From positions 4,533 to 68,532 of the forward strand of contig JBPCPI010000089.1 in assembly GCA_050999295.1 (NCBI GenBank): DNA of 64,000 nucleotides. The letters are read 5' to 3'. The position numbers and the translations under genes were made by a program. Below are positions 9,665 to 34,240 of the stretch, piece by piece. The notes below the pieces were generated by a model. It made no database searches. It was not told where the DNA came from and was given only the letters and a program-made list of their open reading frames with translations. Every line of letters starts with the position of its first letter. Within the stretch, counting starts at the first letter, position 1. Source of the stretch: Geodermatophilaceae bacterium. GTDB taxonomy: Bacteria; Actinomycetota; Actinomycetes; Mycobacteriales; Geodermatophilaceae.

Positions 9665-11304
9665 TAGCTACTTCGACCTGAAATAGTCGGTCGACTGAAT
9701 GTGGGGCACCCCCGAAGGTGGGTGCTTTGGTCGTTCTGATCTTCAGATTCCGGTCGATCAGCTGGCCAGCGCACCGATCTTGACAAGATTGTGCGCGAGG
9801 ACCGCCTGTCCGGTCCAGATCCGGGCTCCTTCGGTGCCGTCCAGCCGGGTGCGATCCCATCCGTATCCTCGTTTGAGGTAGCTGATCCGTCCTTCGCTGC
9901 CGGTTCGCCACTTCACGGTCTTTCGGAACGCGGGTCGGTGCTCTTGGGCCTGTCTGGCCTTACCGGGCTTGCCTTTGCGGGGGATGACGACGCTGCGAAC
10001 GCCGAGATCGTGCAGGTCGTCCTCGACCCGGCTCTCGCCGTAGCCCCGGTCGGCGGTGACGGTGCGGGGCTTGCGGCCGGTCCGCTTGATCACGCGTTCG
10101 ACGGCCGGTGCGAGTTGCGGCGCGTCCGGCGGGTTGCCTTGGGTCACGGTGTGGTCGAGCACGACCCCGTCGTCGTTGTCGAGGACCTGCGCCTTGTAGC
10201 CGAACTCGACCGGCTTGCCGAGTCTGCCTTTGGCGATCGGACGGGCGTCGGGCTCGTGCAGGCTGACCCGCCGGGTCGCCCCATCCGGAGTGATCCCGGC
10301 TACCCGTTGCCTGGTCTGCGCGGCGATCCGGCGGGTTGCATCGAGCAGCTTCGCCAGGTCGTCGACTGCGCGGCGGAGCCGGCCCCGGCGTCGACCCGCG
10401 GCCGCGTCCCGGCCGCCGACCGCGGCAAGGCCGGCGGCCTTCGCCTGCGCACGGCGTAGCGCCCGCCGGGCGTTGGCCAGCAGCCGCTCGGCCTCGGTGG
10501 CCGCCCGCTCGGCAAGCTGGGCGAGTTCACCGGTGATCCGCTGCACCCTGCGCTGCGCCTCGTCCCGGCCCTGCGCGGCTCGCAGCCGAAGCTTCGCGGC
10601 GATCCCGTGCGCCCGCTTGCCCGCTGACCGACTGCGGTCCCGCAGTCGGGTCCGGGTCGCGCCACCGGCAGCCTGAACTCGCCGGCCCGGTCACGGCGAT
10701 CCGCCAAATCGCCTTGGCCAACAGGCCCGAGTCCGTCGGATAGGCCACGTCCGCCGGGACCACCGTGGTGTCCGCGCGCAGCCGCGACGTGCGCAGCAGC
10801 TTCGCCTCGGCGGCCTTGGCCAGCAGCGCCTCGTTGCACCCATCCACCGCCGCGGTGCCACACCGAGTGGTCAGCTTCATCAGCGTCGTCGGATGCGGCA
10901 CCGTGGCCCCGAGTGGGATCCGGCAGAACAGCCGCCACGTGATCGAGTCGCTGACCTCACGACACAACGACTCATATCCCAGCCGGTAGCGGAACTTCAG
11001 AAACATCATCCGAAGGTAGGTCTCCACCGGCGTCGACGGGCGGCCCATCCGAGCATCAAAGAACCGCACGAACGGCCGAAAGAACGCCGGATCATCCAGC
11101 AGGACATCGACCCGAGCCAGCTCCCCGGGCAACACCAGCAACTCCGCCGGCAGGACCGACTCCCACAACGAGCGTTGATCGCCTACGGTACGAAACACGA
11201 TGGCCTCGATCCCTTCTAGCCCAATGGTTCGAGGCCATTCTCTCGATCAACACCGCCCCGATCAGTGACCGCCACGCGGCCACTTTTTCAGGTCGAAGTA
11301 GCTA
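9665..11304 (-). mobile_element. IS element, IS5/IS1182-type DDE transposase, perfect 19-bp terminal inverted repeats
   Basis: TAGCTACTTCGACCTGAAA at 9665-9683 is the exact reverse complement of 11286-11304. The transposase coding sequence lies between them. Confidence 0.8.
9758..11198 (-). pseudogene. IS transposase (DUF772 N-terminus plus DDE C-terminus) interrupted by a 1-nt frameshift near 10684-10690
   Basis: After ...LLAKAIWRIAVTG, ORF1 (10527-11198) becomes Arg/Gly-rich nonsense. The ORF2 frame (9758-10546) reads back through ...PGRRVQAAGGATRTRLRDRSRSAGKRAHGIAAKLRLRAAQGRDEAQRRVQRITGEL to a TGA right at the GGGCCGG run. Confidence 0.8.
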
Positions 11305-11477: not shown

Positions 11478-12227
11478 GTGACCGATCCACTGGTGCAACC
11501 GCGTCCTGATGGACAGAACCCCGCCGACTACACCGACGACGTGGTTTCGGCGGACTTGGTCCGCCTCGTGCGTGACCTGGGTCCGGGTGGCCGGCTGCCG
11601 GGTGAACGCGACCTAGCGATCCAGCTAGGGGTCAGCCGGACGGCACTGCGCGACCGGCTTCAACTTCTCGATGGACTTGGTGTGCTGCGCCGTACGACCG
11701 GTTCCGGCACCTATGTCCAGACATTGCAGCCCACCGGACTCGCGCTTGCCCTGAACGTCGCCATAAGCGTCTCTCAGCTCTCCACCGAGGCGCTGCACTC
11801 GGTTCGAATCGCGCTGGAACGGCAAGCGGCCGCCGAGGCAGCTCTGGCCGGTGACTACGTCCTGATGGCCTACATGCGAAAGGCCATCCACACGATCGAT
11901 GTCGCGAGCGATGACGCAGATGTCGACGATGCGGACTTCCACTTCCACGACGCGCTCCTTCGCGCCGCCGGCAACCCAGCGCTCAGCTTCTTCGCCGACG
12001 CACTCTCGGGTGTGCTCAAGCGGGCGCTGAGCCAGCGGCGCGCTGAAATGCGACTCCACGTTGGTGACCATGAGGTGATGGTCAATGTGCATCAGGCAAT
12101 CTATGAGGCTGTGCTGTCAGGGGACCCGGCAGCAGCGATGGCAGCGACTGACAATCACTTCGAGACGTTCGAACACTTTGCCGGGGGTGGGCACTACCGA
12201 ACCGCGCTACCCCCGCGAGGACGCTGA
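11478..12227 (+). CDS. GntR/FadR family transcriptional regulator (paralog 1)
   Basis: AAGGAGG precedes GTG 11478. wHTH block GERDLAIQLGVSRTALRDRLQLLDGLGVLRR plus an FCD-type helical C-terminus. The 3' end overlaps the convergent carrier-protein gene by 21 nt. Confidence 0.85.
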   Translation: MTDPLVQPRPDGQNPADYTDDVVSADLVRLVRDLGPGGRLPGERDLAIQLGVSRTALRDRLQLLDGLGVLRRTTGSGTYVQTLQPTGLALALNVAISVSQLSTEALHSVRIALERQAAAEAALAGDYVLMAYMRKAIHTIDVASDDADVDDADFHFHDALLRAAGNPALSFFADALSGVLKRALSQRRAEMRLHVGDHEVMVNVHQAIYEAVLSGDPAAAMAATDNHFETFEHFAGGGHYRTALPPRGR

Positions 12228-12467
12228 TTCCTTCGGCTGCAAGAAGTGGACCTCAATGGCGTCCAGGGTCCGGAATTGGTCGACACTGAGTTCATCTGCT
12301 GGGATGTCCCTGGCGACGAGGGACTCCAGCAACAAGATGAACTCCATGAAGCTGAGTGAGTCGATAAGTCGGTTCTCGATCAAGTCGAGATCCCGGGGTA
12401 TGTCCTCGAGATCGTTGTTCTTCATCTGCAGCCAGTCGATCACGGGCTTGAGGTCTTCCGACATCAC
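12207..12467 (-). CDS. acyl/aminoacyl carrier protein (86 aa)
   Basis: Four-helix carrier pattern with phosphopantetheine-Ser motif LIDSLSFMEF. The start overlaps the PPTase stop. About 54% GC by hand count of 12241-12420. Confidence 0.85.
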   Translation of the reverse strand: MMSEDLKPVIDWLQMKNNDLEDIPRDLDLIENRLIDSLSFMEFILLLESLVARDIPADELSVDQFRTLDAIEVHFLQPKESASSRG

Positions 12468-12928
12468 TGATCGCTCCTATTCAGGTCTTGGGACATTCCG
12501 ACGGCGACCGCGACCGCGTACGCGTCCTCATGCGTCATGCTCAGCGTGATGTCACCTACGCCCCGCTGACGGGCAAGCTCTTCGGCCCGTCCGTGCAGGG
12601 TCACGACGCAGGACCCTCCCGCCGTGCGTCCGATTTCGACGTCTTTCCAGGGTGGCGCCGCTGTCGTCGGCTGTAGGAGCTTGAACACGGCCTCCTTGGC
12701 TGCGAAGCGTGCGGCGAAATGTCGCGCCTGTGCCCCCGACAGAGGGGGAGCCGATTCGATCTCAGTCCGCGTGAACACCCGGCTCGCGAACCGCTCGCCC
12801 AGCCGCGCCACCACGTCGGCCATTCGGAGCACGGACACGATGTCTACCCCTACGACTGGACGTGGCGGCGGTGTGCTCGAACCCCTTGGCAGGCCCGGCG
12901 GCCGCGACGATTCTGCTGACCCGGTCAT
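12464..12928 (-). CDS. acpS: holo-[acyl-carrier-protein] synthase (AcpS-type 4'-phosphopantetheinyl transferase)
   Basis: VGVDIVSV..., FAAKEAVFKLL, WKDVEI...LSMTHEDAYAVAVAV. ATGA overlap with the upstream gene. Confidence 0.85.
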   Translation of the reverse strand: MTGSAESSRPPGLPRGSSTPPPRPVVGVDIVSVLRMADVVARLGERFASRVFTRTEIESAPPLSGAQARHFAARFAAKEAVFKLLQPTTAAPPWKDVEIGRTAGGSCVVTLHGRAEELARQRGVGDITLSMTHEDAYAVAVAVGMSQDLNRSDQ

Positions 12929-13953
12929 GAACGCATCGGCGACAACGTTGCGTCGTACTCAGCTCTGAGCCGGCCGACGATGTCCTTGGCGGGCGCGAGC
13001 CGAGTCACGCGCTCGCATGAGGTCCCGCAGTACATGGCCATCAGATCGATCCGCCCTTCGGTACGAGCAGTGGGCACCGCTGCGCTGTACCGAGGCACAG
13101 GTAACCGGCGACCCTCCACATCCGTCGTTGCGATGAATTGAGCGGCCTCACGGTTGCGCGCCTGGGTAGTCGCGTTCTGAAGCACCCGATGCGGGCGGTG
13201 CGGCCATCCGATGTCGAATGCTTCGGTGATCACTGTGTCACCGTCCCCGGCGTCCAGCACGCGTTGCTTGTAGTCCGGATGGGCGCGTGACTCGCGGGCC
13301 GGGATGAAAAGCGTGCCCGCCATGGCCCCATCGGCGCCCTCGGTCAGTGCCGCAGCCAGGTCGACCCCGGTCGCGATCCCGCCCGCCACGACGAGCACGG
13401 CCAGTGGGTGCTGGGAGCGAACTTCGGTGAGCAGTTCTGTCGAGGAAGTCGTGCCGAGATGGTGACCGCCTGCTTCGCAGCCTTGGAGAACGAGCGCGTC
13501 AGCGCCGAGCACGAGCGCTGCAGCCGCGTCCTGGGGTGTGCCGACCTGAACGACGAGATGCCGCTGGGCGCTCTTGACCAGTTCGCCGAGGTCGCTGTCT
13601 GGCAGCCCGAAAGTCGTCACGAACCCAGACTCGGGCAAATCCTCCAGGGCGGCGACGACCTGCTCACATGCGGCCGCATGGCCGCTGACCTCAGGGATGA
13701 CGTTGATCCCGAACGGGCGGTCGCACTGAGCCGCTGTTTGTCGGACAAGTCGGCGGATCGATTCGGCCCGCTCCTTGTACAACGCCAGGATGCCGCCGGC
13801 GCCGGAGTTCGAAACGCCGGCCGCGAGTTCCGGTCCCGCCACGCCACCCATCCCCGCCTGCAGTAGCGGCAGCGTCAGACCGAGGAGGTCGGTGAGGCGG
13901 GTGACGAGGGCATTTCCCCTCGGCATCATCACGTTGGCGTCATGAGCAGTCAT
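12925..13953 (-). CDS. nitronate monooxygenase / FabK-like FMN enzyme (NMO family)
   Basis: LPLLQAGMGGVAGPELAAGVSNSGAGGILA, GCEAGGH and VVAGGIATG motifs. Confidence 0.8.
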   Translation of the reverse strand: MTAHDANVMMPRGNALVTRLTDLLGLTLPLLQAGMGGVAGPELAAGVSNSGAGGILALYKERAESIRRLVRQTAAQCDRPFGINVIPEVSGHAAACEQVVAALEDLPESGFVTTFGLPDSDLGELVKSAQRHLVVQVGTPQDAAAALVLGADALVLQGCEAGGHHLGTTSSTELLTEVRSQHPLAVLVVAGGIATGVDLAAALTEGADGAMAGTLFIPARESRAHPDYKQRVLDAGDGDTVITEAFDIGWPHRPHRVLQNATTQARNREAAQFIATTDVEGRRLPVPRYSAAVPTARTEGRIDLMAMYCGTSCERVTRLAPAKDIVGRLRAEYDATLSPMRS

Positions 13954-14995
13954 CGTCGTCAGCAGGCTTTCGGGCGATGACGGCGCTGCGGTCGCCGGTC
14001 GTCGATCGACAGTCGACGACGGAGAATCCGGCCTCCTGCAACATGTCGCCGAGCTCGGCCACCGACCAGCACTTGCCGGGTGTGGAGTGCATGAGGAGCA
14101 CTGAGTATTCGGCCACCGAGCGCGGGCCGGTCTTGCGTCCGTCGATGTGTGCGTCGTGATCGACTAACCATCCTCCGGGCGGGAGTGCCGCGAAGGAGGA
14201 CGCGATCAGATGCCGCACGTGTTCCTGCCCCCAGTCATGGAGAACGTGCGAGAACAGGTGCAGGTCATAGCCTTCAGGCAGGGGGTCTGTGAACATGTCA
14301 CCGGCGATCACGTCGACTCGGTCGGCATACCCACGATCTGCCAGCAGCTGCCGGGCGGCTTGGTCGACTGGCGGGCATTCGAAGACCGCCGCCCGCATGT
14401 CCGGCATCCGGTCCAGCAGGGCGCAGGCGTAGATGCCCGAGCCGCCTCCGACATCGAGCACCCGACCGGCGCCGGCCGTACCGTCGAGAGCCACAGCCAG
14501 GGCCGGACCGAGGAACCTCCCCCGTGCGTCCATGGCCGCGGTGATCCGCTGGGCGAACGCCGGCTCGATGAGCCGCTCGGACCAGTCCTGTCTAGCCTCT
14601 GCGCTCGCCCAGGATGCGGGCCTTCCCGTGCGCAGAACTTGGAGTAGCTCGAGGCACGCCGGGCGTTCTCGTAGCGAGGCGTAGTAGGCGCGAAGATCCC
14701 ATGGGGAAGTGGCCACGAGATGGTCTGCGGCCAACTGCGTGAGGCGCAAACTGTCGGCTGCGCCGCGCTGGAGCAGACCCAGCGAGACGAGGTAGGTGGT
14801 CATCACGTCGAAGGCTCGCGCATCGAGATCGAGTTGTTGGCAGATCTCCCCGCTGCGAGCCTGCGGGTTGCCGTCCAGCCACGTGAACAGATCAAGCTCT
14901 GCTACTGCCACGATCAGCAGATCAGCGGCGTAGATGCCGTCACGTAACCGGTAGAGGACGTGCGGATCAGTCGGCTGGTGGCCCGGGGTGATCAC
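13940..14995 (-). CDS. class I SAM-dependent O-methyltransferase (dimerisation domain plus Methyltransf_2)
   Basis: N-terminal dimerisation helix pattern, SAM motif VLDVGGGSGIYA, LFSHVLHDW. Confidence 0.85.
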   Translation of the reverse strand: MITPGHQPTDPHVLYRLRDGIYAADLLIVAVAELDLFTWLDGNPQARSGEICQQLDLDARAFDVMTTYLVSLGLLQRGAADSLRLTQLAADHLVATSPWDLRAYYASLRERPACLELLQVLRTGRPASWASAEARQDWSERLIEPAFAQRITAAMDARGRFLGPALAVALDGTAGAGRVLDVGGGSGIYACALLDRMPDMRAAVFECPPVDQAARQLLADRGYADRVDVIAGDMFTDPLPEGYDLHLFSHVLHDWGQEHVRHLIASSFAALPPGGWLVDHDAHIDGRKTGPRSVAEYSVLLMHSTPGKCWSVAELGDMLQEAGFSVVDCRSTTGDRSAVIARKPADDDDCS

Positions 14996-15993
14996 GAGGC
15001 ACGCGGCTTGGCCGCCACCAACACCGTCGAAACGTTTCCGCCGATAGTGAAGGTCGTCGGTTCCTCGAACCCCACCTCACGAAGCAGGGCGGAGGTTTCC
15101 CCGATCGTGTAGTCCCCGCCGCCCTCCCACAAGATCATCGAGGAGAGGTGATGCAGCGCAGCAAAGGGTGGGCTGACCCGGTCCTCGCCCAGAAAGTTGC
15201 CGTTGAGGATGACGCGACCGCCGGGCTCGAGGGCGGCGTAGGCGCGCTCGAGAAGCAGGCGTCGCCTCTCGTCGGTCTCGGCGTGGAACATGTTGGACAG
15301 CAGTACGCCAGCGAGCCCGTCGCCATAAGCCGAAGTGGCGTAGTCGCGGGCGACGGCCACGACCCGGTCTGCCATGCCGAGTTCGGAGATGACCTTGTTG
15401 GCGATCGGAACTGTGTCCGGAATATCGAAGATCTGGGCCTGCAGCTGCGGATGTCGCCGGCACAGGGCCATGGAGTACGCGCCACATCCCCCACCGAGGT
15501 CGACGAGTGTTCCCACTAGCGGTGGATCGATGCCGTCGGCCAGCTCGTCGGCCAGCGGCACGGCGTACCGGTAGAAACCAATCTCGAGATCCCGCAACTT
15601 GGCTGGGTCCGTGCTCATTCCGGAGTCGCCGACCGCTACCGGACCACCTTTACGGACCAGCTCGGTCAGCTGCGCCCAGGACCGCCCCCACTCCCCCATC
15701 GTGCGTACCCATCCGGTCAGACTCTCGTCCGAATCGTCGGCAAGGAATCGGCGAGCTGTCTGAGTGACGGAGAAGTGATCCTTGTTCCGCGTGAGCAATC
15801 GCATGGCCACGGCCGCGTTCAGTAGCGCGTCGGTTGCTGCCGTGTCCAGTTGTAGGCGGCCCGCCACGTCCTCGGCGGTGAGTGGACTCTCGAGAAGGGT
15901 GTCCACAACTCGCAACTCGGCGAGGGTGTAGAGGACTTCGGCCTGCCAGGTACCGACCGCCAGCTGCGCGATGTGCCGCATGCCCAGTTCCAT
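14992..15993 (-). CDS. class I SAM-dependent O-methyltransferase (second copy, same fold)
   Basis: LVDLGGGCGAYS SAM motif and a COMT/CrtF-like layout. 4-nt overlap with the next gene. Confidence 0.85.
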   Translation of the reverse strand: MELGMRHIAQLAVGTWQAEVLYTLAELRVVDTLLESPLTAEDVAGRLQLDTAATDALLNAAVAMRLLTRNKDHFSVTQTARRFLADDSDESLTGWVRTMGEWGRSWAQLTELVRKGGPVAVGDSGMSTDPAKLRDLEIGFYRYAVPLADELADGIDPPLVGTLVDLGGGCGAYSMALCRRHPQLQAQIFDIPDTVPIANKVISELGMADRVVAVARDYATSAYGDGLAGVLLSNMFHAETDERRRLLLERAYAALEPGGRVILNGNFLGEDRVSPPFAALHHLSSMILWEGGGDYTIGETSALLREVGFEEPTTFTIGGNVSTVLVAAKPRAS

Positions 15994-16014
15994 GATCTAC
16001 CTACCCATCAACGG

Positions 16015-17973
16015 TCAGGACACAAGAGAGGGGGCTTGGCTGACAACCTCTCGCTCCATGCGTCCGACGAAGTACGCGCTCTCCTCGTGATTGGTCGTCG
16101 AGACGAAATTGGAGAAACCGACCTTGTAGTAGAAGGCGCTCTCGACCGGGGCTGCCTGCTCGGGGGCGGGTGTCTCCCCGGCCTTCAAGGCAGCGATCAA
16201 CGCCGGGACATCCGCGGTCAGCTTGATGGGCCTGCGCCGGTAGAACTGCTCGTTGGCGATGTCGACAACCTCGAGATCATCAGCGTCGGTCTCGTTGGAC
16301 AGGTTGCAGATAGGCAACGTCAGCAGGTCATATGCGAAGACGTCGGCGAGTAGCGGACGCACCTTTTCCGGCAACAGCGGGTCGATCGCCTCACGCCACC
16401 AGCGAGCCAATACGGCCTTGCCGTCGGGGTTGCCGTGCAGGAAGACCAGGGCCGGTCCGACCGCGCTGGACTCACCGGATGCCTTGCTCGCGATCTCCCG
16501 AAGGGGCGCGGACGCGCTGTCGGTCTGCTTGTCCACCCAGTCGCCGAGGTTCAGGAGAACTTGGGATTGCTCCATACCACCCAAGATCCGCAACGGCGTC
16601 CAGATGTTGCGCAATACCAGGTTCTCCGCGATCACCCGCGCCCAGAACAGGAAGCGATGCATCTGTCGGTTGTCCTCGAGGGACATGGAGTCGTGTGCCA
16701 GCACGTATTCGAAATCGTCGTTGTCACCACGAATGGTGATGAAGCCGTAGTCCTTCTTCTTCTCCGAGTAGTCGGTGTTCGGTAACAGGAGCAACGGATA
16801 GGCGGCAATCCGCGACACATGATGGGAGAGCCGGTCATAGCCCTCCAAGAAGGACCGGACGGTCTCCCCAGGCGACCCCCAGATGATTTCGGCGTAACAG
16901 TCGAGTCCCTCGCCTTCCAGCCATTCGACCAGGTCAGTCCAGTCGTTGACCTTCATGTTCTTCCGGTTCATCCTGTCGAGTGCATCGCCGGAAAGGGTCT
17001 GTAGTGCGAGTGTGAAGGAGCTGCGCAGCCCGGCTCGCTTCATGTCGCGCACGATGTTGTAGAAGACTTTGGACTTGTTCTTCGCCCACGAGGTCTCGAG
17101 AGTCTTGGGATAGCCGTATTGTTCCTTGACTTCGATCAGATCTTGTACGAACTCCACATCGATGGGCAACATCCCGAAGTTGGCATCGCAGAGAACGATG
17201 GTCTCGACCTTGAGTTGGGCCATGAGTTCGAGTTCGGAACGGAGTCTCGCACGAGAGAAGGCGCGAACACGCTGGCCGACGGCGCCGCCCCAGAAACAGA
17301 ACGAACACTTGTAGGGACATCCGCGGTTGGTCTCCATGAGGGCAACGTCGTACGGAAAGGCGCCGTTCTCATCCGTCAGCCGGATTGCCCCGGTGAGGAA
17401 CGGGGACGGAATGACGTCCAGATCCTCGATCCTGGGTCGTTCCTCGGTGGTTGTGATCGCCCCGGAATCGTCCTTGAAGGCGATACCCGTAATCGCGCCC
17501 AGATGACCGGGTTTCGTGCCGTCGAGGAAGGCATTCAACAGGTCGGCAAAGATGAACTCGCCCTCTCCGTTGACGATGACATCCACCTCCGGGAACATCG
17601 GAAAAACACGGGCTGCCTGGTGGGCAACATGCGTTCCTCCCATGACCACCCACCCATCAGGGTTGAGCTGCTTGAACGTCTCGGCCAGGGCGGCGAAGGT
17701 TCGGGAGTTCCACCCTGCGACGGAGAAGGCCAGGATGTCCGGAGTACCGGCCTGGAAGAGATCGTTCGCCATGTCCGAGAGCGTCAACCCGCCCCGATAG
17801 TTGAAGATCTCGATGTTCATCTCCGCAGCGATGCGGGTGTCAGCAAGAGCGGTGGCCTTCACGTAGCCAGCGGCCAGGGGCATGGATTCCATGGGCATGT
17901 CCCACACGCCTTGTTGCACAAGCCACGCACTGCGGCGCTTCTCCGGTGCGGGTGGGTACAACTCGAGTGTCAT
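16015..17973 (-). CDS. B12-binding-domain radical SAM enzyme (class B)
   Basis: N-terminal Rossmann-like cobalamin domain, then NRGCPYKCSFCFWG (CxxxCxxC). 652 aa. ATGA overlap with the upstream gene. About 45% GC in sampled line 17101-17160. Confidence 0.85.
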   Translation of the reverse strand: MTLELYPPAPEKRRSAWLVQQGVWDMPMESMPLAAGYVKATALADTRIAAEMNIEIFNYRGGLTLSDMANDLFQAGTPDILAFSVAGWNSRTFAALAETFKQLNPDGWVVMGGTHVAHQAARVFPMFPEVDVIVNGEGEFIFADLLNAFLDGTKPGHLGAITGIAFKDDSGAITTTEERPRIEDLDVIPSPFLTGAIRLTDENGAFPYDVALMETNRGCPYKCSFCFWGGAVGQRVRAFSRARLRSELELMAQLKVETIVLCDANFGMLPIDVEFVQDLIEVKEQYGYPKTLETSWAKNKSKVFYNIVRDMKRAGLRSSFTLALQTLSGDALDRMNRKNMKVNDWTDLVEWLEGEGLDCYAEIIWGSPGETVRSFLEGYDRLSHHVSRIAAYPLLLLPNTDYSEKKKDYGFITIRGDNDDFEYVLAHDSMSLEDNRQMHRFLFWARVIAENLVLRNIWTPLRILGGMEQSQVLLNLGDWVDKQTDSASAPLREIASKASGESSAVGPALVFLHGNPDGKAVLARWWREAIDPLLPEKVRPLLADVFAYDLLTLPICNLSNETDADDLEVVDIANEQFYRRRPIKLTADVPALIAALKAGETPAPEQAAPVESAFYYKVGFSNFVSTTNHEESAYFVGRMEREVVSQAPSLVS

Positions 17974-18923
17974 GACTCACTGCCAATCTGTCGGGACGTC
18001 GGATCTCGACGTTCCGCTCGCTCGGTGTTGGGTGAATGGGCCCGGACGACGTCGCCGGCAGCAATCAGGTCACCGCCGAAGGTTTCTGACAACGCGTAGA
18101 TCCATCGCTCGAGACCGAATGCAACGCAACTGGTGAACGCACTGGCACCGCGTTGCGTGATCGAGCAGCGGTCACCGAAGAAATTGCGGTGGAAGTTGAG
18201 CGAGGCAATCGCGCAATCTGTACCGAAGACGTACTCCCACTTCACCGGGTCCATCTTCTGCATGAGCGCTCGGGGGCCGCTGGGGCGAAAGAATGGATCC
18301 GTTGCCGTCTCCTCCTTGAGCAGGAGGCCGATATCGGCTGCGAAACCTGTCACCCGCTGGCGAAAATGGTCCAGGTGGGCCAACGCTGCGTCCATACCCC
18401 CGATGAACACCACCTCGCGCATATGGAAATTCCACAGGCGCTTCAGACTGTGATGCTCCTCTTCGTTTCGGTAGCAACTCGCTTTAGTGGTGACCAGGAG
18501 ATCGGCGTCGAGCCTCGTATCCTGAAGATCGAAATAGACCGGGTAACAGGCCGCAGAGGGCAGCATGAATCGCACTTCCTCGAGGTGTCCTGGCGGAAGC
18601 GAGACCGGTTGCAAGCACTGGTCCGCGTACCCGCCGAGCGAAGCGGAACTGAGCCGCGATACCGCAGATCCCAGATGCGGGAAGTTCTTGAAGTAGTCAA
18701 TGCTTTCGAGGCTGTCAACCGCGAGAACGCCCGGATAGCTGACCTCGATCGCCCCCTGCTCGGCGGCCCATCCTCGAAAGGCGCCGTCGAGTTGACGCAC
18801 CAACGCAGTCGCTTTCGGTCCTATCGTTGCGCGCCCGTAGCTGGTGTTCCACGGCCTGGACGATGGCTCCACCGTAATGCCGGTCCCGGAACTGCGTGGC
18901 GAGGACAGCATGTGTGAGTTCAC
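17970..18923 (-). CDS. class II aminoacyl-tRNA-synthetase catalytic-core homolog without tRNA-binding domain (amino acid:[carrier protein] ligase type)
   Basis: 317 aa. Motif-2-like ASCYRNEEEHHSLKRLWNFHMREVVFIG and motif-3-like SCVAFGLERW. Cys/Glu/Cys candidates for the Zn site of atypical SerRS-like enzymes. No N-terminal coiled coil or anticodon domain. Confidence 0.7.
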   Translation of the reverse strand: MNSHMLSSPRSSGTGITVEPSSRPWNTSYGRATIGPKATALVRQLDGAFRGWAAEQGAIEVSYPGVLAVDSLESIDYFKNFPHLGSAVSRLSSASLGGYADQCLQPVSLPPGHLEEVRFMLPSAACYPVYFDLQDTRLDADLLVTTKASCYRNEEEHHSLKRLWNFHMREVVFIGGMDAALAHLDHFRQRVTGFAADIGLLLKEETATDPFFRPSGPRALMQKMDPVKWEYVFGTDCAIASLNFHRNFFGDRCSITQRGASAFTSCVAFGLERWIYALSETFGGDLIAAGDVVRAHSPNTERAERRDPTSRQIGSES

Positions 18924-19001
18924 TCCAGTTGTACATCGACTGGGCTGACAGGAATAAGCAATTGAGTCCTGGTTCTGTGCCCGGCACCCCGGGGCGCCAG
19001 G

Positions 19002-19865
19002 TCAAGCCATGACGCCGATCCTTTTGTAGAACGCGACCGTGCTCGCCACGACTTTGTCCGTAGCCTGCCGCCGGCCGGGATCTGCCAGGAGTCGCTCCCG
19101 AAAGGCGAGTGGCTCCTCGATTCCAGCATCTCGATAGACTCTTGGCTCATACAGGCCGCGCACGGATGCCTCGATGTATCGAGGCACGTAGGCCTTCGCC
19201 CGTTCGATCTCAGCCGGACTGCCCTCGTCGAGCAGGCGAAGAAAGAGGATCTTCACCAGTTGGCAGCCGAAAGCGATATGGCGGGATTCGTCCTGGTGGT
19301 GTATTCGGTTTATCGCCTGGATGGTCGGGTGCAGGGCCTTGTCCGATCCCATTCGTGCGTTGAAATAATCAACGATTCGCTCGAAGATCAAGATTCGGCT
19401 GAATACCAGGAAACTCGCCACCAGCGGGGACTCTTCATCCTCGAAGACGATCTTCCGGTCAGGATAGATCTTTCCGCCGTACCGTAGGCAGAATTCCGCG
19501 AAGAACCACATGTGCTCGTTCTCCTCACCGATGAAATGGTGGAAGAACTGAGTAGGAATCTCATAGTGCGGCGTATGGATCCGGTGCATCACTTCAATCA
19601 ACAGCTCGCGGATGCCGTGCACATTCAGACTGTAGAAATGAATGCTCTCCCATTTCGACAGCGCCAGTAGTTGTTCCTGGGTGAGCTCCTGCTCGGCTTC
19701 CGTACCGGCCACGGTCATCAGGTCCCGGCTCATCCACAGGCCATCGGTCTCGATGCGCTCTGGCCAGTCGAAGGTCGCGTACGGGTTGTAGTAGTCCTCG
19801 ATCGAAGCACGACTGAGCCGATTCACGACATCGGTGAACTGGGCCTCGTACTCCTTGACAGACAC
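19002..19865 (-). CDS. AurF-like ferritin-fold diiron oxygenase
   Basis: Two ExxH motifs (GEENEHMWFF, HHQDESRHIAFG) plus extra Glu/His helices, and EDYYNPYATFDW at the N-terminus. GTG 19865 (GAAGAGG 8 nt upstream) is preferred because the track's TTG 19952 is the TTGACA -35 box and the operator would otherwise fall inside the CDS. Confidence 0.65.
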   Translation of the reverse strand: MSVKEYEAQFTDVVNRLSRASIEDYYNPYATFDWPERIETDGLWMSRDLMTVAGTEAEQELTQEQLLALSKWESIHFYSLNVHGIRELLIEVMHRIHTPHYEIPTQFFHHFIGEENEHMWFFAEFCLRYGGKIYPDRKIVFEDEESPLVASFLVFSRILIFERIVDYFNARMGSDKALHPTIQAINRIHHQDESRHIAFGCQLVKILFLRLLDEGSPAEIERAKAYVPRYIEASVRGLYEPRVYRDAGIEEPLAFRERLLADPGRRQATDKVVASTVAFYKRIGVMA

Positions 19866-19901
19866 GCTGGTTGCCTCTTCAACATCGGTATGGCCAGTGG
19901 C

Positions 19902-19920
19902 CGTATTGGTAGGACCGCTT
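19902..19920 (-). promoter_or_regulatory. 19-bp operator AAGCGGTCCTACCAATACG, copy facing the diiron/ligase operon
   Basis: Exact reverse complement of 20079-20097. Core GGTCCTACCA. Confidence 0.7.
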
Positions 19921-20078
19921 CTACCTTGGCCCAGCTGCCCTGTGATTGTCAAGGCGCCGATGATCTAGAGCCGAGCCGCGGTCCCCGGCCGTCGGGGGCG
20001 AGGAGCCCTGGTAGGCCTGATGTCTGGCCGGTCCGACGGGCGGCCTTGACACGGCAGCTCCATCTGGACGAGGCTGGC

Positions 20079-20097
20079 AAGCGGTCCTACCAATACG
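20079..20097 (+). promoter_or_regulatory. 19-bp operator AAGCGGTCCTACCAATACG, copy facing the P450 operon
   Basis: Identical to the minus-strand site at 19902-19920. Each is preceded by a TTGACA hexamer 26-27 nt upstream. Confidence 0.7.
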
Positions 20098-20177
20098 ACT
20101 ACTGGCCTTACCGTTCCCGGAAGGGGGCAGCCGACGCTGTCTGTCCAGGAGAACGATTCCCAACCTGCTGCGGTGTG

Positions 20178-21500
20178 ATGCGTTCCGGCCAGAGACTCGA
20201 AGGAGTTGCGTTGCCTCAATCTCAACCACACGCCACTAGCACCGCCGTCACTGAAGAGAACGTCCCGGCGGTCATCTCCGCCGATACCCGCGAAGTTGCG
20301 CTCGCTTTCAATTTGTTCGACCTGCCGCCGGGGTACTTCGCTGCGCCGCATGGATGGTTCCGAGCACTGCGAAATCATGACCCGGTCCATTCGAATGGCG
20401 ACGGGACGATCCTGCTCACGAGATATGCAGACGTTCGGACGATATGGCGGGATGCGACGTCGTCGGTGGACAAAGCTGACCTGTTCGAACGCAAGTTCGG
20501 TGCGGGGCCACTCCTGGAGCACCACACGACCTCGATGCTCTTCCAGAACCCACCCAATCACGAGCGGTTGCGTTCGGTGGTCATCCCGTTCTTCTCACCG
20601 AAGTCCCTGGAACGGTTACGCGAATTCATAAACAATAAGGTGGACCGCCTCTTGGACGAGATCCAGGAGCGCGGAGAACTGGATTTCGTCATCGATTTCG
20701 CGGCAAAGATTCCTATCGCGCTCATCACCCATATCCTGGGGGTGCCAGACGAGGACGGGCCGATGCTGCGCGGATTGGGTCTGCGTGTGCTCTACCCGCT
20801 CAACCCCCGGGTTGCCGACGAGGCCATCAAGTCGGGACACGAGGCCGCCGCCGAATTCGCCGAATACATGCACGAGCACATCGTCCGGGCCCGCGCCCGC
20901 GGGCTCTCCGGGGACCCCGAGACCATCGTCGAGGCGCTGGTGGCCGCCGAGCAGGGCAGCGGGGCGATCTCAGAGGCTGAGATCGTCCACAACTGCCTCC
21001 TGGTCCTCAATGGCGGGCACACGACCACGACAGACCTTCTGGGCGTGGGGACGCACACCTTGCTCGGCCTGCCGGACGACTACCGCGCACTGGCCGAGAT
21101 GCCGGAGCGATCCGTGGCCGGGGCGATCGAGGAATTGCTGCGGTTCGTATCCCCGCTTCAGCTGCAGTCGCGCCGCACCACGCGGAAGGTCGACCTGCCC
21201 TCTGGCCAGAGCGTTCCTGCCGACACCGAGGTCTGGGTCTGCCCTGCCTCGGCCAACCGTGACGACCGCGTTGTCGACAACCCAGAGACGCTGGACCTGG
21301 CCCGCAAACCCAACGCGCATGTCGCTTTCGGACTCGGCGTCCACGTCTGTCTGGGGCGTCCGCTGGCCCGGATGGAGACGGTCAGCGCGTTCCCCAAACT
21401 CGCGCGACGCTTTCCCGAACTCCACCGCGCCGGTCCCCCGGTCTTCAACCAGAACGCTCGGTTCCGTGGGCTGGCAAGCCTTCCCGTACGTGTGTCATGA
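20178..21500 (+). CDS. cytochrome P450
   Basis: I-helix GGHTTT, EELLRF, heme loop FGLGVHVCLGRPLA. Start is ATG 20178, or TTG 20211 (AGGAG 5 nt upstream). The 609-aa track ORF is over-extended antisense into the diiron gene. Confidence 0.9.
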   Translation: MRSGQRLEGVALPQSQPHATSTAVTEENVPAVISADTREVALAFNLFDLPPGYFAAPHGWFRALRNHDPVHSNGDGTILLTRYADVRTIWRDATSSVDKADLFERKFGAGPLLEHHTTSMLFQNPPNHERLRSVVIPFFSPKSLERLREFINNKVDRLLDEIQERGELDFVIDFAAKIPIALITHILGVPDEDGPMLRGLGLRVLYPLNPRVADEAIKSGHEAAAEFAEYMHEHIVRARARGLSGDPETIVEALVAAEQGSGAISEAEIVHNCLLVLNGGHTTTTDLLGVGTHTLLGLPDDYRALAEMPERSVAGAIEELLRFVSPLQLQSRRTTRKVDLPSGQSVPADTEVWVCPASANRDDRVVDNPETLDLARKPNAHVAFGLGVHVCLGRPLARMETVSAFPKLARRFPELHRAGPPVFNQNARFRGLASLPVRVS

Positions 21501-22768
21501 GCGACAGCGGCAAGGCTCCGCGCTGCCTGATCGCCGGCGGTGGGCAGGCCGCCGCGCAGGTGGCCATCAGTCTCCGCCACGTCGGCTACGCCGGAGAAAT
21601 CACGGTGATCGGCGATGAGCCGACGGCGCCCTACCAACGGCCGCCGCTGAGCAAGGCCTACCTGAAGGGCGAGATATCTGCCGAGCAGCTCCGCTTCCGT
21701 CCAGCAGCCCTGTACGAAAAGCTGCGCGTCGAGCTACGTACAGGTCAGCGCGTCGTGACCGTTGACCGCGACAAACGCGAGATCGAGCTGGACGGCGGCG
21801 AGCACGTCCCCTTCGATTGGCTCGTCCTGAGCACTGGCGCCCGCCCGCGACCGCTGTCCGTGGCCGGAGCTGAGATCCCTCGACTACTCGCCTTGCGCAC
21901 TCTTGCCGATGCCGACCGGCTGCGCGACATGCTGACCCCTGGGCGTCGGTTGCTGATCGTTGGCGCCGGTTACTTGGGGCTCGAGGTAGCGGCTGTTGCG
22001 GCCCGGCTCGGCGTTGCGGTGACCGTACTCGAGGCAGGCGAGCGGGTACTGGCGCGAGTCGCCGGATGCGAGGTGGCCGAGTTCCTGGCTGCCGTACATG
22101 CGGATGCCGGTGTGAAGATCGTGATTAGAACAACGGTCCGCGAGCTCCTCCGCGGTCCAGACGGCGCGGCCACCGGGGTTGTCTGCTCCGACGGCCGAAG
22201 CTGGGCTGCCGACCTCGTGCTGGTCGCCGTCGGCGTGGCCCCGGAAGTGGAACTCGCCGAGGCGGCCGGCTTGCCCTGTGACAACGGGATCATGGTGGAC
22301 GGGCAGGCCCGGACCAGGGACCCGCGGATCTATGCCGCAGGCGACTGTACGAATCAGCTCGACGCCGCATCCGGCCGGCGGCTGAGGCTGGAATCGGTGA
22401 ACAACGCAGTCGAACAAGGCAAGACCGTGGCGGCTGCGATTACCGGCTCATCACCCCGTGCTGCGCAGGTCCCCTGCTTCTGGTCGGATCAATATCACGT
22501 GAAGCTGCAGACCGTGGGCGTCCTTGCCGGACATGCCGCCAGTGTCGTGCGCGGCGACCCGGCGCACGGCTCTTTCGCGGTGCTCTACCTCGACGATGGC
22601 GGCCACGTGGTCGCCGTCGACGCGGTCAACGCACCACGTGAGTTCTCCTTCGCGCGATCCCTGCTCGGAAGGCGGCCAGTCGGCGAGCCACTGCCCTCGC
22701 CGGATGCCTGGCCGCGGGTCAAATCGGCGACGCTTCCCACGTTGCTGGGGAAAACGGCGGTGCTCTGA
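21497..22768 (+). CDS. FAD-dependent NAD(P)H:ferredoxin reductase (putidaredoxin-reductase type)
   Basis: LIAGGGQAA, YQRPPLSKAYL, IVGAGYLGLEVAA, AAGDC. ATGA overlap with the P450 stop. Confidence 0.9.
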   Translation: MSDSGKAPRCLIAGGGQAAAQVAISLRHVGYAGEITVIGDEPTAPYQRPPLSKAYLKGEISAEQLRFRPAALYEKLRVELRTGQRVVTVDRDKREIELDGGEHVPFDWLVLSTGARPRPLSVAGAEIPRLLALRTLADADRLRDMLTPGRRLLIVGAGYLGLEVAAVAARLGVAVTVLEAGERVLARVAGCEVAEFLAAVHADAGVKIVIRTTVRELLRGPDGAATGVVCSDGRSWAADLVLVAVGVAPEVELAEAAGLPCDNGIMVDGQARTRDPRIYAAGDCTNQLDAASGRRLRLESVNNAVEQGKTVAAAITGSSPRAAQVPCFWSDQYHVKLQTVGVLAGHAASVVRGDPAHGSFAVLYLDDGGHVVAVDAVNAPREFSFARSLLGRRPVGEPLPSPDAWPRVKSATLPTLLGKTAVL

Positions 22769-23088
22769 TGGCCACCATCACCTATGTCGAATTCGACGGC
22801 ACCGAGCACGTGATCGAGGTTGAGGACGGCCTGTCTGTCATGGAAGGCGCCGTCAACAATGCCATCCCCGGTATCGATGCAGATTGCGGCGGCGTCTGTT
22901 CGTGCGCCACCTGCCACGTGCATGTCCCGGTCGAGTGGCGAGACGTCCTGCCCGAGCGCGCCGAACCCGAACTGGACATGTTGGAGTTCGCCCCGGACCG
23001 TGACGAGGACAGCCGTCTGAGCTGTCAGCTGGTCGTGGATTCGCGGCTCGACGGAATGGTCGTGCGGTTACCGGAATCCCAGGGCTAG
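22768..23088 (+). CDS. [2Fe-2S] ferredoxin (adrenodoxin/putidaredoxin type)
   Basis: 106 aa with CGGVCSCATCHV plus a distal SCQ cysteine. The start overlaps the reductase stop. Confidence 0.9.
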   Translation: MATITYVEFDGTEHVIEVEDGLSVMEGAVNNAIPGIDADCGGVCSCATCHVHVPVEWRDVLPERAEPELDMLEFAPDRDEDSRLSCQLVVDSRLDGMVVRLPESQG

Positions 23089-23128: not shown

Positions 23129-23157
23129 TTGACCATCCTCGTGAGTGGTCCTACCAT
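23129..23157 (+). promoter_or_regulatory. promoter with embedded FadR-type operator TGGTCCTACCA (GntR paralog 2)
   Basis: TTGACC (23129-23134), 17-nt spacer, TACCAT (23152-23157). The palindrome TGGT-CCT-ACCA at 23146-23156 spans the -10 box. Confidence 0.6.
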
Positions 23158-23189
23158 TTCTCGAGGCGGTCGGACCTTCGGAGGTGCAT

Positions 23190-23987
23190 GTGGTGTCACC
23201 CGGATCCGACCTTTCTAGCCTCGTGGGCGACCACTACCGCTCGGACCCGGTGTCCGCCGGGCTCTCCGATGTGATTCGCTCTTTAGCCCCAGGAGATCGG
23301 CTGCTCGGCGAACGAGACCTCGCTGTCACACTCGGGGTGAGTCGCACGGCACTGCGTGACCGGTTGCGGTTGATGGAGGGCTTGGGAGTTCTGAGGCGCA
23401 CAACCGGCTCCGGCACCTTTGTGCAGGACCTTGATCCCACCGGCCTTGCGCTTGCCCTCGACATCGCGCTGTCCTCGTCGCGCATTCCGCTCTCGGCATT
23501 GCACACGGTGCGCACGGCAATCGAACGGCAGGCTGCCATCGAAGCTGCCGGCCAACAGGATCCCGTGCTGATCGCCCATATGCGGAAGGCGGTGGACACG
23601 ATTGCCGCGTCGACCGAGGACTCCGAAGTGGACAATGCGGACTTCCACTTTCATGACACTTTGCTACGGGCTTCCGGCAACCAGGCCCTCGCGTTCTTCG
23701 CCAGCGCTCTGGGCGGAGTGCTCCACAAGTCGCTTCACGAGCGACGCATCGAAATGCGCAAGATCGCCGGTGACCGCGAGGTCATGGCACGCGTTCATCG
23801 CGACATCTATGACGCGGTGGCCTCCGGAGATTCCGTGGCCGCCGCTGCTGCTGTCGAGGAGCACTTCGCCACATTCGACCGGTTGGTGCTCGCAGCCCCG
23901 AAATTGACCACACCTTCCCAACTGACCGTTACGAATTCCGGCTCTCGGAAGACCGGTGATCCCGGCGGCGCCTTGTCTCCTGACTGA
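23190..23987 (+). CDS. GntR/FadR family transcriptional regulator (paralog 2)
   Basis: GGAGG lies upstream of in-frame GTG 23190/23193. About 90% identical by eye to paralog 3. Same wHTH block GERDLAVTLGVSRTALRDRLRLMEGLGVLRR. Confidence 0.85.
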   Translation: MVSPGSDLSSLVGDHYRSDPVSAGLSDVIRSLAPGDRLLGERDLAVTLGVSRTALRDRLRLMEGLGVLRRTTGSGTFVQDLDPTGLALALDIALSSSRIPLSALHTVRTAIERQAAIEAAGQQDPVLIAHMRKAVDTIAASTEDSEVDNADFHFHDTLLRASGNQALAFFASALGGVLHKSLHERRIEMRKIAGDREVMARVHRDIYDAVASGDSVAAAAAVEEHFATFDRLVLAAPKLTTPSQLTVTNSGSRKTGDPGGALSPD

Positions 23988-24193: not shown

Positions 24194-24703
24194 GTGAAAA
24201 CGGCCTCCGGAACCGGCCTTGTCCTCGTCCGCTGCGAGGCAAGTGAGGACGTCTTCGCCGGATTGTTGATGGTCTTCGACGATCTGGGCGTCGATGCTGC
24301 ATCGGTCAGCGGGATGGTGGGCAGCCTTCAGCGGGTGGAGTACGCGACAGCGGTGTGCGACCCCCGCGGGCGCCCTGGCTATAGCCGCAGCGTCATACGG
24401 ACTGGTCCCATCGAGATCGGGTCCGCACAGGGTCACCTGGGCCGGAATCCAGCCGGCCGACCTGAGCTGCATTTGCACGGGGTCTTCTTCACCGACGTCG
24501 GAACGGTGTTCGGCGGACACGTCGTCCAGGCCGAGGTCCTCGTCACCGTCGAGGTCGCCCTCATCCCCGATCGCGATGTCGGCTGGAGCAGGGACTACGT
24601 ACGAGTCAAAGGATCGGATCTGCTACCTGTCCTGCAACCGATCAACACGGAGGGTAACGCTAGTGCGCCGTTACTGAAGTGTTTTGACGGTTCGCTTTGG
24701 TGA
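24194..24703 (+). CDS. PPC (DUF296) domain protein, copy A (GTG start, altered 3' end)
   Basis: Near-identical to 33697-34167 (…ELHLHGVFFTDVGTVFGGHVVQAEVLVTVEV…). A 1-nt difference removes the original stop and reads into the IS630 remnant. Confidence 0.55.
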   Translation: MKTASGTGLVLVRCEASEDVFAGLLMVFDDLGVDAASVSGMVGSLQRVEYATAVCDPRGRPGYSRSVIRTGPIEIGSAQGHLGRNPAGRPELHLHGVFFTDVGTVFGGHVVQAEVLVTVEVALIPDRDVGWSRDYVRVKGSDLLPVLQPINTEGNASAPLLKCFDGSLW

Positions 24704-25205
24704 GGATCTGTTCTGCGGTCTTGGTCCAGACGAACGGGTGTGCTCGGTTGTTCCAGCCATCGATGAAGGCTCGGATCTTGGCGGTCAGTTCGGTCACCGA
24801 GCGAAAGGTGCCGCGGTGGATGGCTTGGCGTTCGATGATCCCGAACCAGACCTCGACCAGATTCATCCACGAGGCCGAGGTCGGGGTGAAGTGCACCCGG
24901 ATTCGCGGGTTGGCTTCGAGCCAGTCTCGGATCTCGACGCGTTTGTGGGCGGCGTAGTTGTCCATCACCAAGTGCAGTTCGACGTCGGGATGAAGTAGCA
25001 GAGCGGGAGGACGCTCAGCGACATGGCACCGACCGGAGCCAGGCGCACGCCCATTCCAGGGTCCGGATTGTTCGTCGTCTCGCGCGACGGTCGGCTGACC
25101 GAAGACGAGCGGTCTGCGATAGGCACTGTCGGCGAAACCGCCGCGAATGCGTGGCTGAAACACCAAGTACCAGCAGCTCCAGTGGCGCAGCGGGTTCGCC
25201 GCCAC
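24660..25205 (-). pseudogene. IS630-family transposase remnant (C-terminal DDE part only, 5' part degenerate)
   Basis: LHLVMDNYAAHKRVEIRDWLEANPRIRVHFTPTSASWMNLVEVWFGIIERQAI...FVWTK is typical of an IS630 C-terminus. The upstream about 75 aa do not form the N-terminal HTH. Confidence 0.75.
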
Positions 25206-28056: not shown

Positions 28057-28206
28057 CTGTACCGACCCAGTGACGTGCAACTCGCAACCGGACCCATTGA
28101 GCCAGCTGATCGCCTGGCAGCTGCTCTCTCCTGGAACGGCCGCGGCGGCGTATCCCGCGCGCCCCCCAGACCTCGCCCCGTCAGACGCAACCAGAAGACT
28201 GTGTGG

Positions 28207-29616: not shown

Positions 29617-29648
29617 TCGTCGAAGCGGTTGGACCTTCGGAGGTGCAT

Positions 29649-34167: not shown

Positions 34168-34240
34168 TGACCACGCCAACTGTCAGCTTCGGCCCATGCC
34201 AAAGTGCTCGCTGCTCGACTGCACACAGAGGAGGCCGCAC

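Follow-up and report, generated by a model that had tools for sequence, protein, structure and literature searches.

Amino acid:[carrier protein] ligases of the kind represented by Bll0957, Bll6282, and Atu2573 were reportedly described by Mocibob and colleagues in 2010 and 2013. Glycine-derived nitronates are said to be O-methylated in the enteromycin class, with related cassettes denitrifying them instead (work of He and Ryan in Nature Chemistry in 2021), and PvfB and HamC are reportedly AurF-family enzymes that act on valine bound to a nonribosomal peptide synthetase (NRPS). The biological role of the ligases was described as unknown in a 2022 review (PMC9437257). According to PMC9967187, a diiron oxygenase together with an O-methyltransferase for nitronates acts on carrier-bound glycine, the oxygenase forming an oxime or nitronate that is then either O-methylated or denitrified by a nitronate monooxygenase (NMO). 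Ferritin-like diiron oxygenases are listed as makers of nitroso, nitro, and nitronate groups (PMC12154687), and CysS, which belongs to the radical S-adenosylmethionine (SAM) enzymes, builds a methoxy group up to ethoxy, isopropoxy, and larger groups, once CysF has made the methyl ether (PMC12846815). Here we describe an eleven-gene cluster in a metagenome-assembled genome (MAG) of Geodermatophilaceae, an uncultured actinobacterium, in which genes for a ligase, a diiron oxygenase, an NMO-like flavoenzyme, methyltransferases, and a radical SAM enzyme occur together. The 64,000-nucleotide stretch of contig JBPCPI010000089.1 that was analysed is referred to as the window, and coordinates are those of the window. 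At its core is a common cassette for putative N-oxygenation on a carrier protein, which a cobalamin (B12)-dependent radical SAM and methyltransferase module and a cytochrome P450 system have joined. We put at roughly 55% the probability that this operon, flanked by insertion sequences (IS), builds a small N-oxygenated, methylated acyl unit on its own carrier protein.

All eleven cluster genes were found intact and closely chained at the coordinates given in an initial annotation of this DNA, and the positions and functions that it assigned were upheld by calls of open reading frames (ORFs), by Pfam, NCBIfam, and PDB matches, and by intact motifs. Every catalytic motif that was checked was intact, and the proteins were full length when compared with their closest orthologues, those of locus L088 (a 35-kb ENA contig); the gene cluster is real and intact. 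The tight chaining ascribed to the eight minus-strand genes was likewise confirmed, with junctions of -4, -4, -14, -4, +21, -4, and +78 nt. The Pfam searches proposed for the cluster gave matches to PF11583, PF00891, PF03060, PF01648, and PF00067, and left the carrier and the ligase with no Pfam match, the 86-aa carrier alone returning only weak AsbD and DltC matches.

Relatives of the ligase were encoded at 562 or more loci in a scan of one genome per species. Genes within 8 kb of the ligase were compared with the window proteins at 87 sampled loci, and an AurF-like oxygenase was present at 84 of them and a carrier at 83. An NMO-like gene was found at 44/87 loci, a homologue of the first O-methyltransferase (OMT1) at 9/87, a 4'-phosphopantetheinyl transferase (PPTase) at 4/87, and a radical SAM gene at 2/87, both of the window's own type. 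The link between ligase and oxygenase held to ~36% ligase identity and was gone in loci at ≤34%. Given the number of ligase loci and the constancy of the oxygenase and carrier, the description of the cluster as an orphan is not supported. Nor is the further statement that it resembles no characterised pathway, since the core follows a published logic, N-oxygenation of carrier-bound glycine, as set out in PMC9967187. A neighbourhood search centred on the ligase, as had been suggested, returned relatives of the cassette, and no high-identity syntenic match to a characterised cluster was found among them.

The commonest architecture of these relatives, AurF-like oxygenase, ligase, NMO-like protein, and carrier, occurs in Streptomyces, Kitasatospora, Pseudonocardiaceae, and Frankia; the other dominant one has the order oxygenase-carrier-ligase, with or without the NMO-like and O-methyltransferase (OMT) genes. 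Genes for condensation (C) domains or NRPS-type proteins lie within 10 kb in roughly a third of related loci. An NMO-like gene accompanied the OMT1 orthologue at all seven sampled loci that carry one, compared with 44/87 overall, and the same pairing was seen in the window, in L088, in L092, and on another contig. At least 25 species representatives (L006, L008-L012, L015, L019-L021, and others) from Streptomyces, Kitasatospora, Pseudonocardiaceae, and Protofrankia embed the four-gene cassette in an 11-gene, non-NRPS block with the order Zn-ADH, ROK, APH, small Dioxygenase_C, class III aminotransferase, inositol monophosphatase, AurF-ligase-NMO-carrier, and MOSC. No described pathway matched this block.

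The whole gene set, including the divergent genes for the P450, ferredoxin reductase, and ferredoxin, recurred in the same order and at 65-79% amino acid identity on a 12.7-kb contig (L002/L089) and in L088. Because it is repeated at this level of identity on independent contigs (L002, L088, and L089), the gene order reflects more than chance. Among the loci found, the whole set was shared with only one other lineage (L002/L088), and the complete set is rare, since the L002/L089 contig (65% identity) was the sole result when JGI metagenomes were searched for close relatives of the ligase. Most of the set is shared with L092, the cultured Micromonospora sp. NPDC049374, which adds a standalone Condensation domain; its order is radical SAM (65%), OMT1 (56%), second O-methyltransferase (OMT2; 62%), two ABC genes, Condensation, AurF-like oxygenase (64%), ligase (39%), NMO (49%), and ACPS. 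The L092 cluster may include a second system for loading a carrier, as suggested by a divergent operon (L092:4613-9146) in which a second ligase-like gene (390 aa, 30% identical) is joined by genes for a class III aminotransferase, a PP-binding carrier, a P450, and an RraA-like protein. Since the cassette is widespread and the radical SAM, OMT, and AcpS genes are insertions into it, the window cluster is a mosaic, with radical SAM-OMT1-OMT2 placed between the ligase and NMO-like genes of the common cassette and AcpS placed before the carrier. The unusual part is the B12-radical SAM enzyme, the double methyltransferase, the cluster's own AcpS, and the divergent P450 system; the core is ordinary, widespread, and partly understood.

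The ligase gene encodes a product of 313-317 aa with a class II catalytic core resembling that of methanogen seryl-tRNA synthetase (SerRS) and without the N-terminal tRNA-binding domain. It matched Bll0957, an amino acid:[carrier protein] ligase defined by structure and biochemistry, in the PDB over residues 50-285 (E=4e-24) and weakly matched the SerRS models NF002120 and TIGR00415. Residues C122, E166, and C262 were invariant in 15 homologues and align with the Cys/Glu/Cys zinc site of Bll0957, using a 20-residue tag offset derived from the alignment; the ligands in Bll0957 we take to be C131, E176, and C279. The deposited gene call (276 aa, start 18800) cuts off the segment W..DGLATLG..A..L, which is conserved in homologues, and a start at 18911 or 18923 therefore fits better. 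Exact-sequence look-ups returned no entry for either the 317-aa ligase ORF or the deposited 276-aa version, and an 8.3-kb Logan contig was the only record obtained for the radical SAM protein. A family profile of the carrier matched a standalone peptidyl carrier protein (PCP; 2my5, E=1.5e-6) and D-alanyl carrier proteins, and of the 88 loci with a matching carrier homologue, nearly all retained the serine of its DSL motif (Ser37). The PPTase consists of a single ACPS domain (PF01648 over residues 26-141) and exceeded the cutoffs of TIGR00556 (82 bits, cutoff 45) and of the acpS model TIGR00516 (61.9 bits, cutoff 59.8). The cluster thus possesses the loading enzyme, carrier, and PPTase of its own that had been claimed for it, according to family matches and motifs, and the ligase and carrier genes were intact rather than degenerate, as judged by the zinc ligands and the DSL serine.

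Searching the PDB with the oxygenase sequence gave no match in phmmer, and a family profile gave marginal matches only (E=0.06-0.7; AurF, E=0.19), identity to AurF and CmlI being ~15%; structure prediction and Foldseek were used for this reason. The AlphaFold2 (AF2) model had a pLDDT of 88, and its best PDB matches were AurF (TM 0.64-0.66) and CmlI, above R2lox and RNR-R2. Residues E73, E115, H118, E162, H189, E193, and H196 were invariant, and by the offset of the profile alignment H189, E193, and H196 fall on positions of AurF that we take to be H223, E227, and H230. On the predicted structure and this presumed numbering, the invariant residues appear to reproduce the AurF-type ligand set, including an extra histidine that we take to be typical of AurF and CmlI.

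The radical SAM enzyme scored 1001 bits against the KedN5 family model NF033712, for which the cutoff is 700, with positions 2-623 of the 624 in the model aligned, and has an N-terminal B12-binding domain and the core motif C219xxxC223xxC226. Its nearest solved structures were CysS (9n1b, E=1.6e-59) and TokK (7kdx, E=1.2e-58), both iterative methylases, with the similarity to CysS limited to residues 31-443. In the window, L088, and L092 alike, the triad runs in the order radical SAM, OMT1, OMT2. Orthologues of OMT2 were 74% identical in L088 and 62% in L092, and those of OMT1 were 71% identical in L088, 56% in L092, and 37-40% in proteobacterial and Eremiobacterota cassettes. The P450, ferredoxin reductase, and ferredoxin had L088 orthologues of 71, 68, and 78% identity, and the divergent position of the P450 gene was the same in L088 and L002. 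The PDB neighbours of the P450 were generic (a CYP125 ancestor, PksS, and BioI-type enzymes). A TxtE-like nitrating P450 was considered and rejected on the basis of these neighbours and of a similarity to TxtE that was only generic (124 bits, cutoff 500).

We observed the linkage of these genes, and each chemical step of the following proposal we infer. The AcpS-type PPTase, judging by its family, would convert the 86-aa carrier to its holo form, and the zinc-dependent, SerRS-derived ligase would activate a small amino acid with ATP and then thioesterify it onto the carrier. The amino acid is probably small, with glycine the most likely by analogy with Bll0957-type ligases, whose family activity has been shown elsewhere, and with the glycine nitronate pathway. 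The linkage, fold, and ligand set of the diiron enzyme suggest that, on the aminoacyl-S-carrier, it would turn the alpha-amine into an oxime or a nitro/nitronate group by oxidation. One or both PF00891 enzymes would then methylate the nitronate or oxime oxygen, or the nucleophilic carbon, after which the cobalamin radical SAM enzyme, considering the conserved triad, would methylate an unactivated carbon once or several times more. Its most appealing target would be the new O-methyl group, which would become ethoxy or isopropoxy as in the CysF/CysS pair. The NMO/FabK-like enzyme might convert un-methylated nitronate to nitrite and glyoxylyl-S-carrier or perform another FMN-dependent redox step on the tethered intermediate, and the P450, with its own reductase and ferredoxin, would add an oxidation. 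In relatives, a condensation domain or NRPS would take the unit onward; release is not encoded in the window.

No core motif of C, adenylation (A), ketosynthase (KS), acyltransferase (AT), or PCP domains was found in a six-frame scan of the window, Pfam scans of ~30 flanking genes revealed no thioesterase (TE), condensation, KS, or A domain, and tblastn of the window with the C-domain and NRPS proteins of L027, L090, and L092 gave no match. An NRPS or polyketide synthase hidden elsewhere in the window was rejected on these three grounds, and the earlier statement that C domain and KS are missing holds for the window, as does that on thioesterase for the genes scanned. The description of the cluster as a free-standing factory is borne out only in part: no release or condensation step is visible in the window, but its closest relatives are tied to a C domain or an NRPS. 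Those with the same radical SAM/OMT/OMT set or with the OMT pair have a standalone C domain (L092, L090) or an NRPS with a TE (L027). In the Ramlibacter MAG L027, the genes encode a carrier, an NRPS (dock-C-A-PCP-TE), an A-PCP-TE protein, AurF, ligase, NMO, two OMTs, PPTase, and a flavin monooxygenase; in Micromonospora matsumotoense (L090), they encode a C domain, AurF, ligase, NMO, and carrier. Since the closest relatives with shared modules are tied in this way to C domains or NRPS modules, the product of the cluster is probably a building block.

Several observations weigh against an N-oxygenated, methylated acyl unit. Among the genes scanned, the window holds no thioesterase, C domain, or reductase. 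The ligase fell far below the cutoff of the NCBIfam equivalog model NF005479 (119.7 bits vs. 357), so that it belongs to a separate clade and is not a Bll0957 equivalog, and glycine, although its most likely substrate, is assigned to it by analogy. The NMO-like protein is nearer to FabK-type structures (~1e-32 for its PDB neighbours) than to class I NMOs (~1e-22) in sequence comparisons. The published scheme has a nitronate either O-methylated or denitrified by an NMO, whereas the window operon has genes for both; because the two co-occur and the OMT1 loci always carry an NMO-like gene, the NMO-like enzyme may have a role other than denitrification. The target of methylation cannot be read from the KedN5 family name, because a 59%-identical member of this family occurs in a sugar-type cluster. 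This gene, on plasmid plas01 of Streptomyces sp. RerS4 (L094; NZ_CP097323.1, 137419-139401), is flanked by genes for a DegT/DnrJ aminotransferase and a class V aminotransferase in a cluster that also holds a glycosyltransferase, a thymidylyltransferase, and an SgcJ/EcaC-family gene, i.e., a deoxysugar context. Finally, the likeness to the characterised nitronate enzymes was set by gene content and description.

The cassette might instead generate nitrite and glyoxylate and build no scaffold. In this unlikely alternative, the oxygenase and the NMO-like enzyme would turn carrier-bound glycine into nitrite and glyoxylyl-S-carrier, the nitrite or NOx then serving the divergent P450 system, or an enzyme from elsewhere, in forming N-N bonds or in nitration or nitrosation, and the methyltransferases and radical SAM enzyme would act on a different, imported small molecule. 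According to the abstract of He and Ryan (2021), cassettes reportedly do oxidatively denitrify glycine-derived nitronates. The oxygenase-ligase-NMO-carrier order is the commonest architecture, the window NMO-like protein (58-63%) and carrier (55-71%) match that group better than L090 or L092 (48-50%), and the embedding of the cassette in the non-NRPS 11-gene block points the same way, as do a P450 with its redox partners facing the operon and nearby TRAP and MFS transporters, the former syntenic in L088. However, the radical SAM and both OMT genes lie inside the cassette, between ligase and NMO-like genes, translationally coupled with overlaps of 4-14 nt, and OMT1 orthologues recur immediately after the cassette in distant phyla. 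The generic nature of the P450's resemblance to TxtE argues against this alternative as well, and no genes that would form an aromatic or other acceptor are present.

A different objection concerns the diiron enzyme, which could be a C-H oxygenase, desaturase, or halogenase of an aminoacyl- or acyl-S-carrier and not an N-oxygenase. For example, it might form a beta-hydroxy amino acid, the hydroxyl of which would be methylated by the OMTs and the resulting methoxy group extended by the radical SAM enzyme, with the NMO/FabK-like protein working on the tethered chain as an FMN ene-reductase or dehydrogenase. The very remote sequence similarity to AurF and CmlI and the proximity of the flavoenzyme to FabK structures agree with such a route, and so does the chemistry of CysS and that proposed for KedN5, which act on methoxy groups made on hydroxyls. 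Yet the two best structural matches are N-oxygenases, the presumed AurF/CmlI-typical histidine is invariant, and the linkage is nearly universal to a loader specific for amino acids and not to an acyl loader. To our knowledge, N-oxygenation is the only characterised reaction of AurF-family enzymes on carrier-bound amino acids (PvfB, HamC, and the althiomycin and enteromycin enzymes). We regard C-H oxidation as quite improbable. Very unlikely, in our judgement, is that the window holds a stranded or decaying island, acquired by IS-mediated transfer, which has lost a partner such as a C domain, an NRPS, or a flavin monooxygenase and makes no finished product. IS remnants do lie on both sides, with a duplication and insertion scar at 23-30 kb; GC content and GC at third codon positions (GC3) are below those of neighbouring housekeeping genes; after the carrier gene, L088 has MaoC and FMO genes that the window lacks; and no release enzyme is present. 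Against decay, the eleven ORFs are full length relative to their L088 orthologues with all checked catalytic motifs intact, and L002/L088 likewise has no C domain or TE in the 10 kb on each side of the cluster (contig of 35 kb), so that a self-sufficient design is possible.

The features of the cluster and its borders are listed in Table 1. The IS5-like transposase that adjoins the cluster on its left is split, probably because the IS is frameshifted or uses programmed frameshifting, and a methylmalonyl-CoA mutase gene also lies on this side, together with the first GntR/FCD regulator. The 3' ends of this regulator gene and the carrier gene overlap by 21 nt, and the regulator was the best match (72-76% amino acid identity by tblastx/tblastn) to the GntR gene located after the L088 ferredoxin. 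A simple sigma-70 scan of the 312-bp divergent region gave no consensus match, and a terminator scan was uninformative, with 4 terminator-like sites compared with 7.2 in shuffled sequence.

Table 1. Features of the gene cluster and its immediate borders (window coordinates).
Feature	Position	Strand	Basis and remarks
IS5-like transposase, two overlapping ORFs	9758..11198	-	Pfam: DDE_Tnp_1 9758-10546, DUF772 10527-11198; left island boundary
GntR/FCD regulator	11478..12227	+	Pfam; 249-aa gene call; convergent with carrier gene
Carrier protein, free-standing, 86 aa	12207..12467	-	Ser37 in IDSLS motif
AcpS-type 4'-phosphopantetheinyl transferase, 154 aa	12464..12928	-	PF01648, 60 bits
NMO/FabK-family FMN-dependent flavoenzyme	12925..13953	-	PF03060, 140 bits
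Methyltransferase OMT2, SAM-dependent, COMT/DnrK-type	13940..14995	-	PF00891; PDB 5i2h E=4e-47
Methyltransferase OMT1, SAM-dependent	14992..15993	-	PF00891 and dimerisation domain PF08100
Cobalamin-dependent radical SAM C-methyltransferase, KedN5 family	16015..17973	-	NF033712, 1001 bits
Amino-acid:carrier-protein ligase (aminoacyl-tRNA synthetase-like)	17970..18923	-	PDB Bll0957 (3mey) E=4e-24; NF005479 120 bits
AurF-like ferritin-like diiron oxygenase	19002..19865	-	PF11583, 104 bits
Divergent intergenic region, 312 bp	19866..20177	.	Between oxygenase operon and P450 operon; presumed to hold both promoters
Cytochrome P450, 440 aa	20178..21500	+	PF00067; heme motif FGLGVHVCLG
FAD-dependent ferredoxin-NAD(+) reductase	21497..22768	+	PF07992 and Reductase_C
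[2Fe-2S] ferredoxin, putidaredoxin/adrenodoxin type	22768..23088	+	PF00111; Cys motif
Second GntR/FCD regulator	23145..23987	+	Pfam; duplicate of 29604-30443, 86.8% nucleotide identity (self-blastn)
DDE_3 (IS630-type) transposase fragment	24660..25205	-	Pfam; right island edge, start of ~5-kb insertion

To the right of the cluster are, in order, the second GntR/FCD gene, a PCC-domain gene, the DDE_3 fragment, and genes for an amidohydrolase, an IclR regulator, and an MFS transporter, followed by a third GntR gene, TRAP DctPQM, PCC, the alpha and beta subunits of a 2-oxoacid dehydrogenase E1, and a short-chain dehydrogenase/reductase. A segmental duplication was seen here, with 23143-24087 matching 29602-30550 (GntR/FCD, 86.8% nucleotide identity) and 24135-24665 matching 33638-34169 (PCC, 92.7%). 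The duplicated copies bracket the ~5-kb insertion, which begins with the DDE_3 fragment and continues with the amidohydrolase, IclR, and MFS genes; the L088 counterpart, Fd-GntR-DctPQM-PCC-E1alpha-E1beta, does not have it. The GntR-TRAP(DctPQM)-PCC-E1alpha-E1beta block (29604-36368) is syntenic with L088:1-6257 at ~40-79% identity in tblastx segments. A part for the TRAP, PCC, and E1alpha-E1beta genes in the pathway was rejected; they are probably an inherited neighbourhood, since L088 shares them in synteny, whereas L092, L027, and L090 lack them. The initial annotation's remark that the cluster has no transporter is correct within 11-24 kb, but MFS (28075-29376) and TRAP (30382-33700) genes lie just downstream. 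GC content was 0.59-0.60 at 16-20 kb compared with 0.62-0.72 elsewhere in the window, and the GC3 of the cluster genes (0.71-0.82) was mostly below that of neighbouring housekeeping genes (0.81-0.87), which is consistent with horizontal acquisition of the cluster. Near the left end of the window, two same-strand Zn_peptidase-like paralogues are arranged in tandem (1952-3263 and 3367-4675; 68% nucleotide identity).

A more specific proposal, which we consider possible but doubtful as a whole, is that the ligase clade is a dedicated loader for AurF-like N-oxygenases and that the operon makes a branched O-alkyl nitronate or oxime ether. Once a glycine nitronate or oxime on the carrier had been O-methylated, its O-methyl group would be lengthened to O-ethyl or O-isopropyl by the radical SAM enzyme, much as CysS treats aryl methyl ethers, and the product would lie one step past the known O-methyl nitronates. 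We know of no branched O-alkyl nitronate or oxime ether in nature. If the main model holds, amino acid:[carrier protein] ligases would gain a concrete task across hundreds of species, i.e., feeding carrier-bound amino acids to diiron N-oxygenases, and a compact operon of ~11 kb with no megasynthase, together with a cultured relative (L092), would provide a tractable place to look for new N-O chemistry, namely nitronate or oxime ethers that a B12-radical SAM methylase has elaborated. The constant presence of an NMO-like gene with OMT1 orthologues in the sampled loci would then suggest that the fork between methylation and denitrification is incomplete. Should the model fail, the finding would still stand that the gene combination is put together from two recurrent modules as a mosaic, rather than being a new kind of system.

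Compared with described systems, the window ligase resembles Bll0957, Bll6282, and Atu2573 (PDB 3mey, 4h2s) in its truncated class II core, the lack of a tRNA-binding domain, the Cys/Glu/Cys zinc site, and a partner gene for a small carrier. It differs from the Bll0957 type in that its clade nearly always adjoins a diiron oxygenase, whereas more distant ligases (≤34% identity) do not. The oxygenase would share with the arylamine N-oxygenases AurF and CmlI the ferritin-like four-helix diiron fold and the seven-residue Glu/His set, but those enzymes act on a free arylamine, and the predicted substrate here is an aliphatic alpha-amine on a carrier protein. In this respect the proposal is closer to PvfB and HamC of the pvf and fragin/valdiazen systems, in which an AurF-family enzyme reportedly oxidises the amine of an amino acid bound to a thiolation domain. 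Those systems use A-T-R NRPSs for loading and release and are like the window by description; an amino acid:[carrier protein] ligase, an NMO, a pair of OMTs, and a radical SAM enzyme are reportedly not part of them. An O-methyltransferase gene adjoins a cobalamin radical SAM gene in CysF/CysS (cystobactamid) and KedN1/KedN5 (kedarcidin), as in the window, although the substrate there is an aromatic hydroxyl on p-aminobenzoic acid or naphthoate and the window has no aromatic-forming gene.

There is also a correspondence with the glycine nitronate/oxime pathway of enteromycin carboxamide, akazaoxime/A-76356, and althiomycin, which, as proposed for the window, combines a carrier-bound small amino acid with an AurF-family oxygenase and has a SAM methyltransferase and an NMO-family enzyme nearby, following the same logic of N-oxygenation and then O-methylation or denitrification. 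The akazaoxime cluster, according to PMC9967187, loads through an A-PCP NRPS, whereas the window would load through a SerRS-derived ligase and a free-standing carrier. Unlike the nitronate pathway clusters, the window has no NRPS or polyketide synthase to accept the unit, and its NMO-like and OMT genes lie in one operon. Also present, beyond the nitronate pathway, are genes for a cobalamin radical SAM enzyme, an additional OMT, an AcpS enzyme, and the P450 system.

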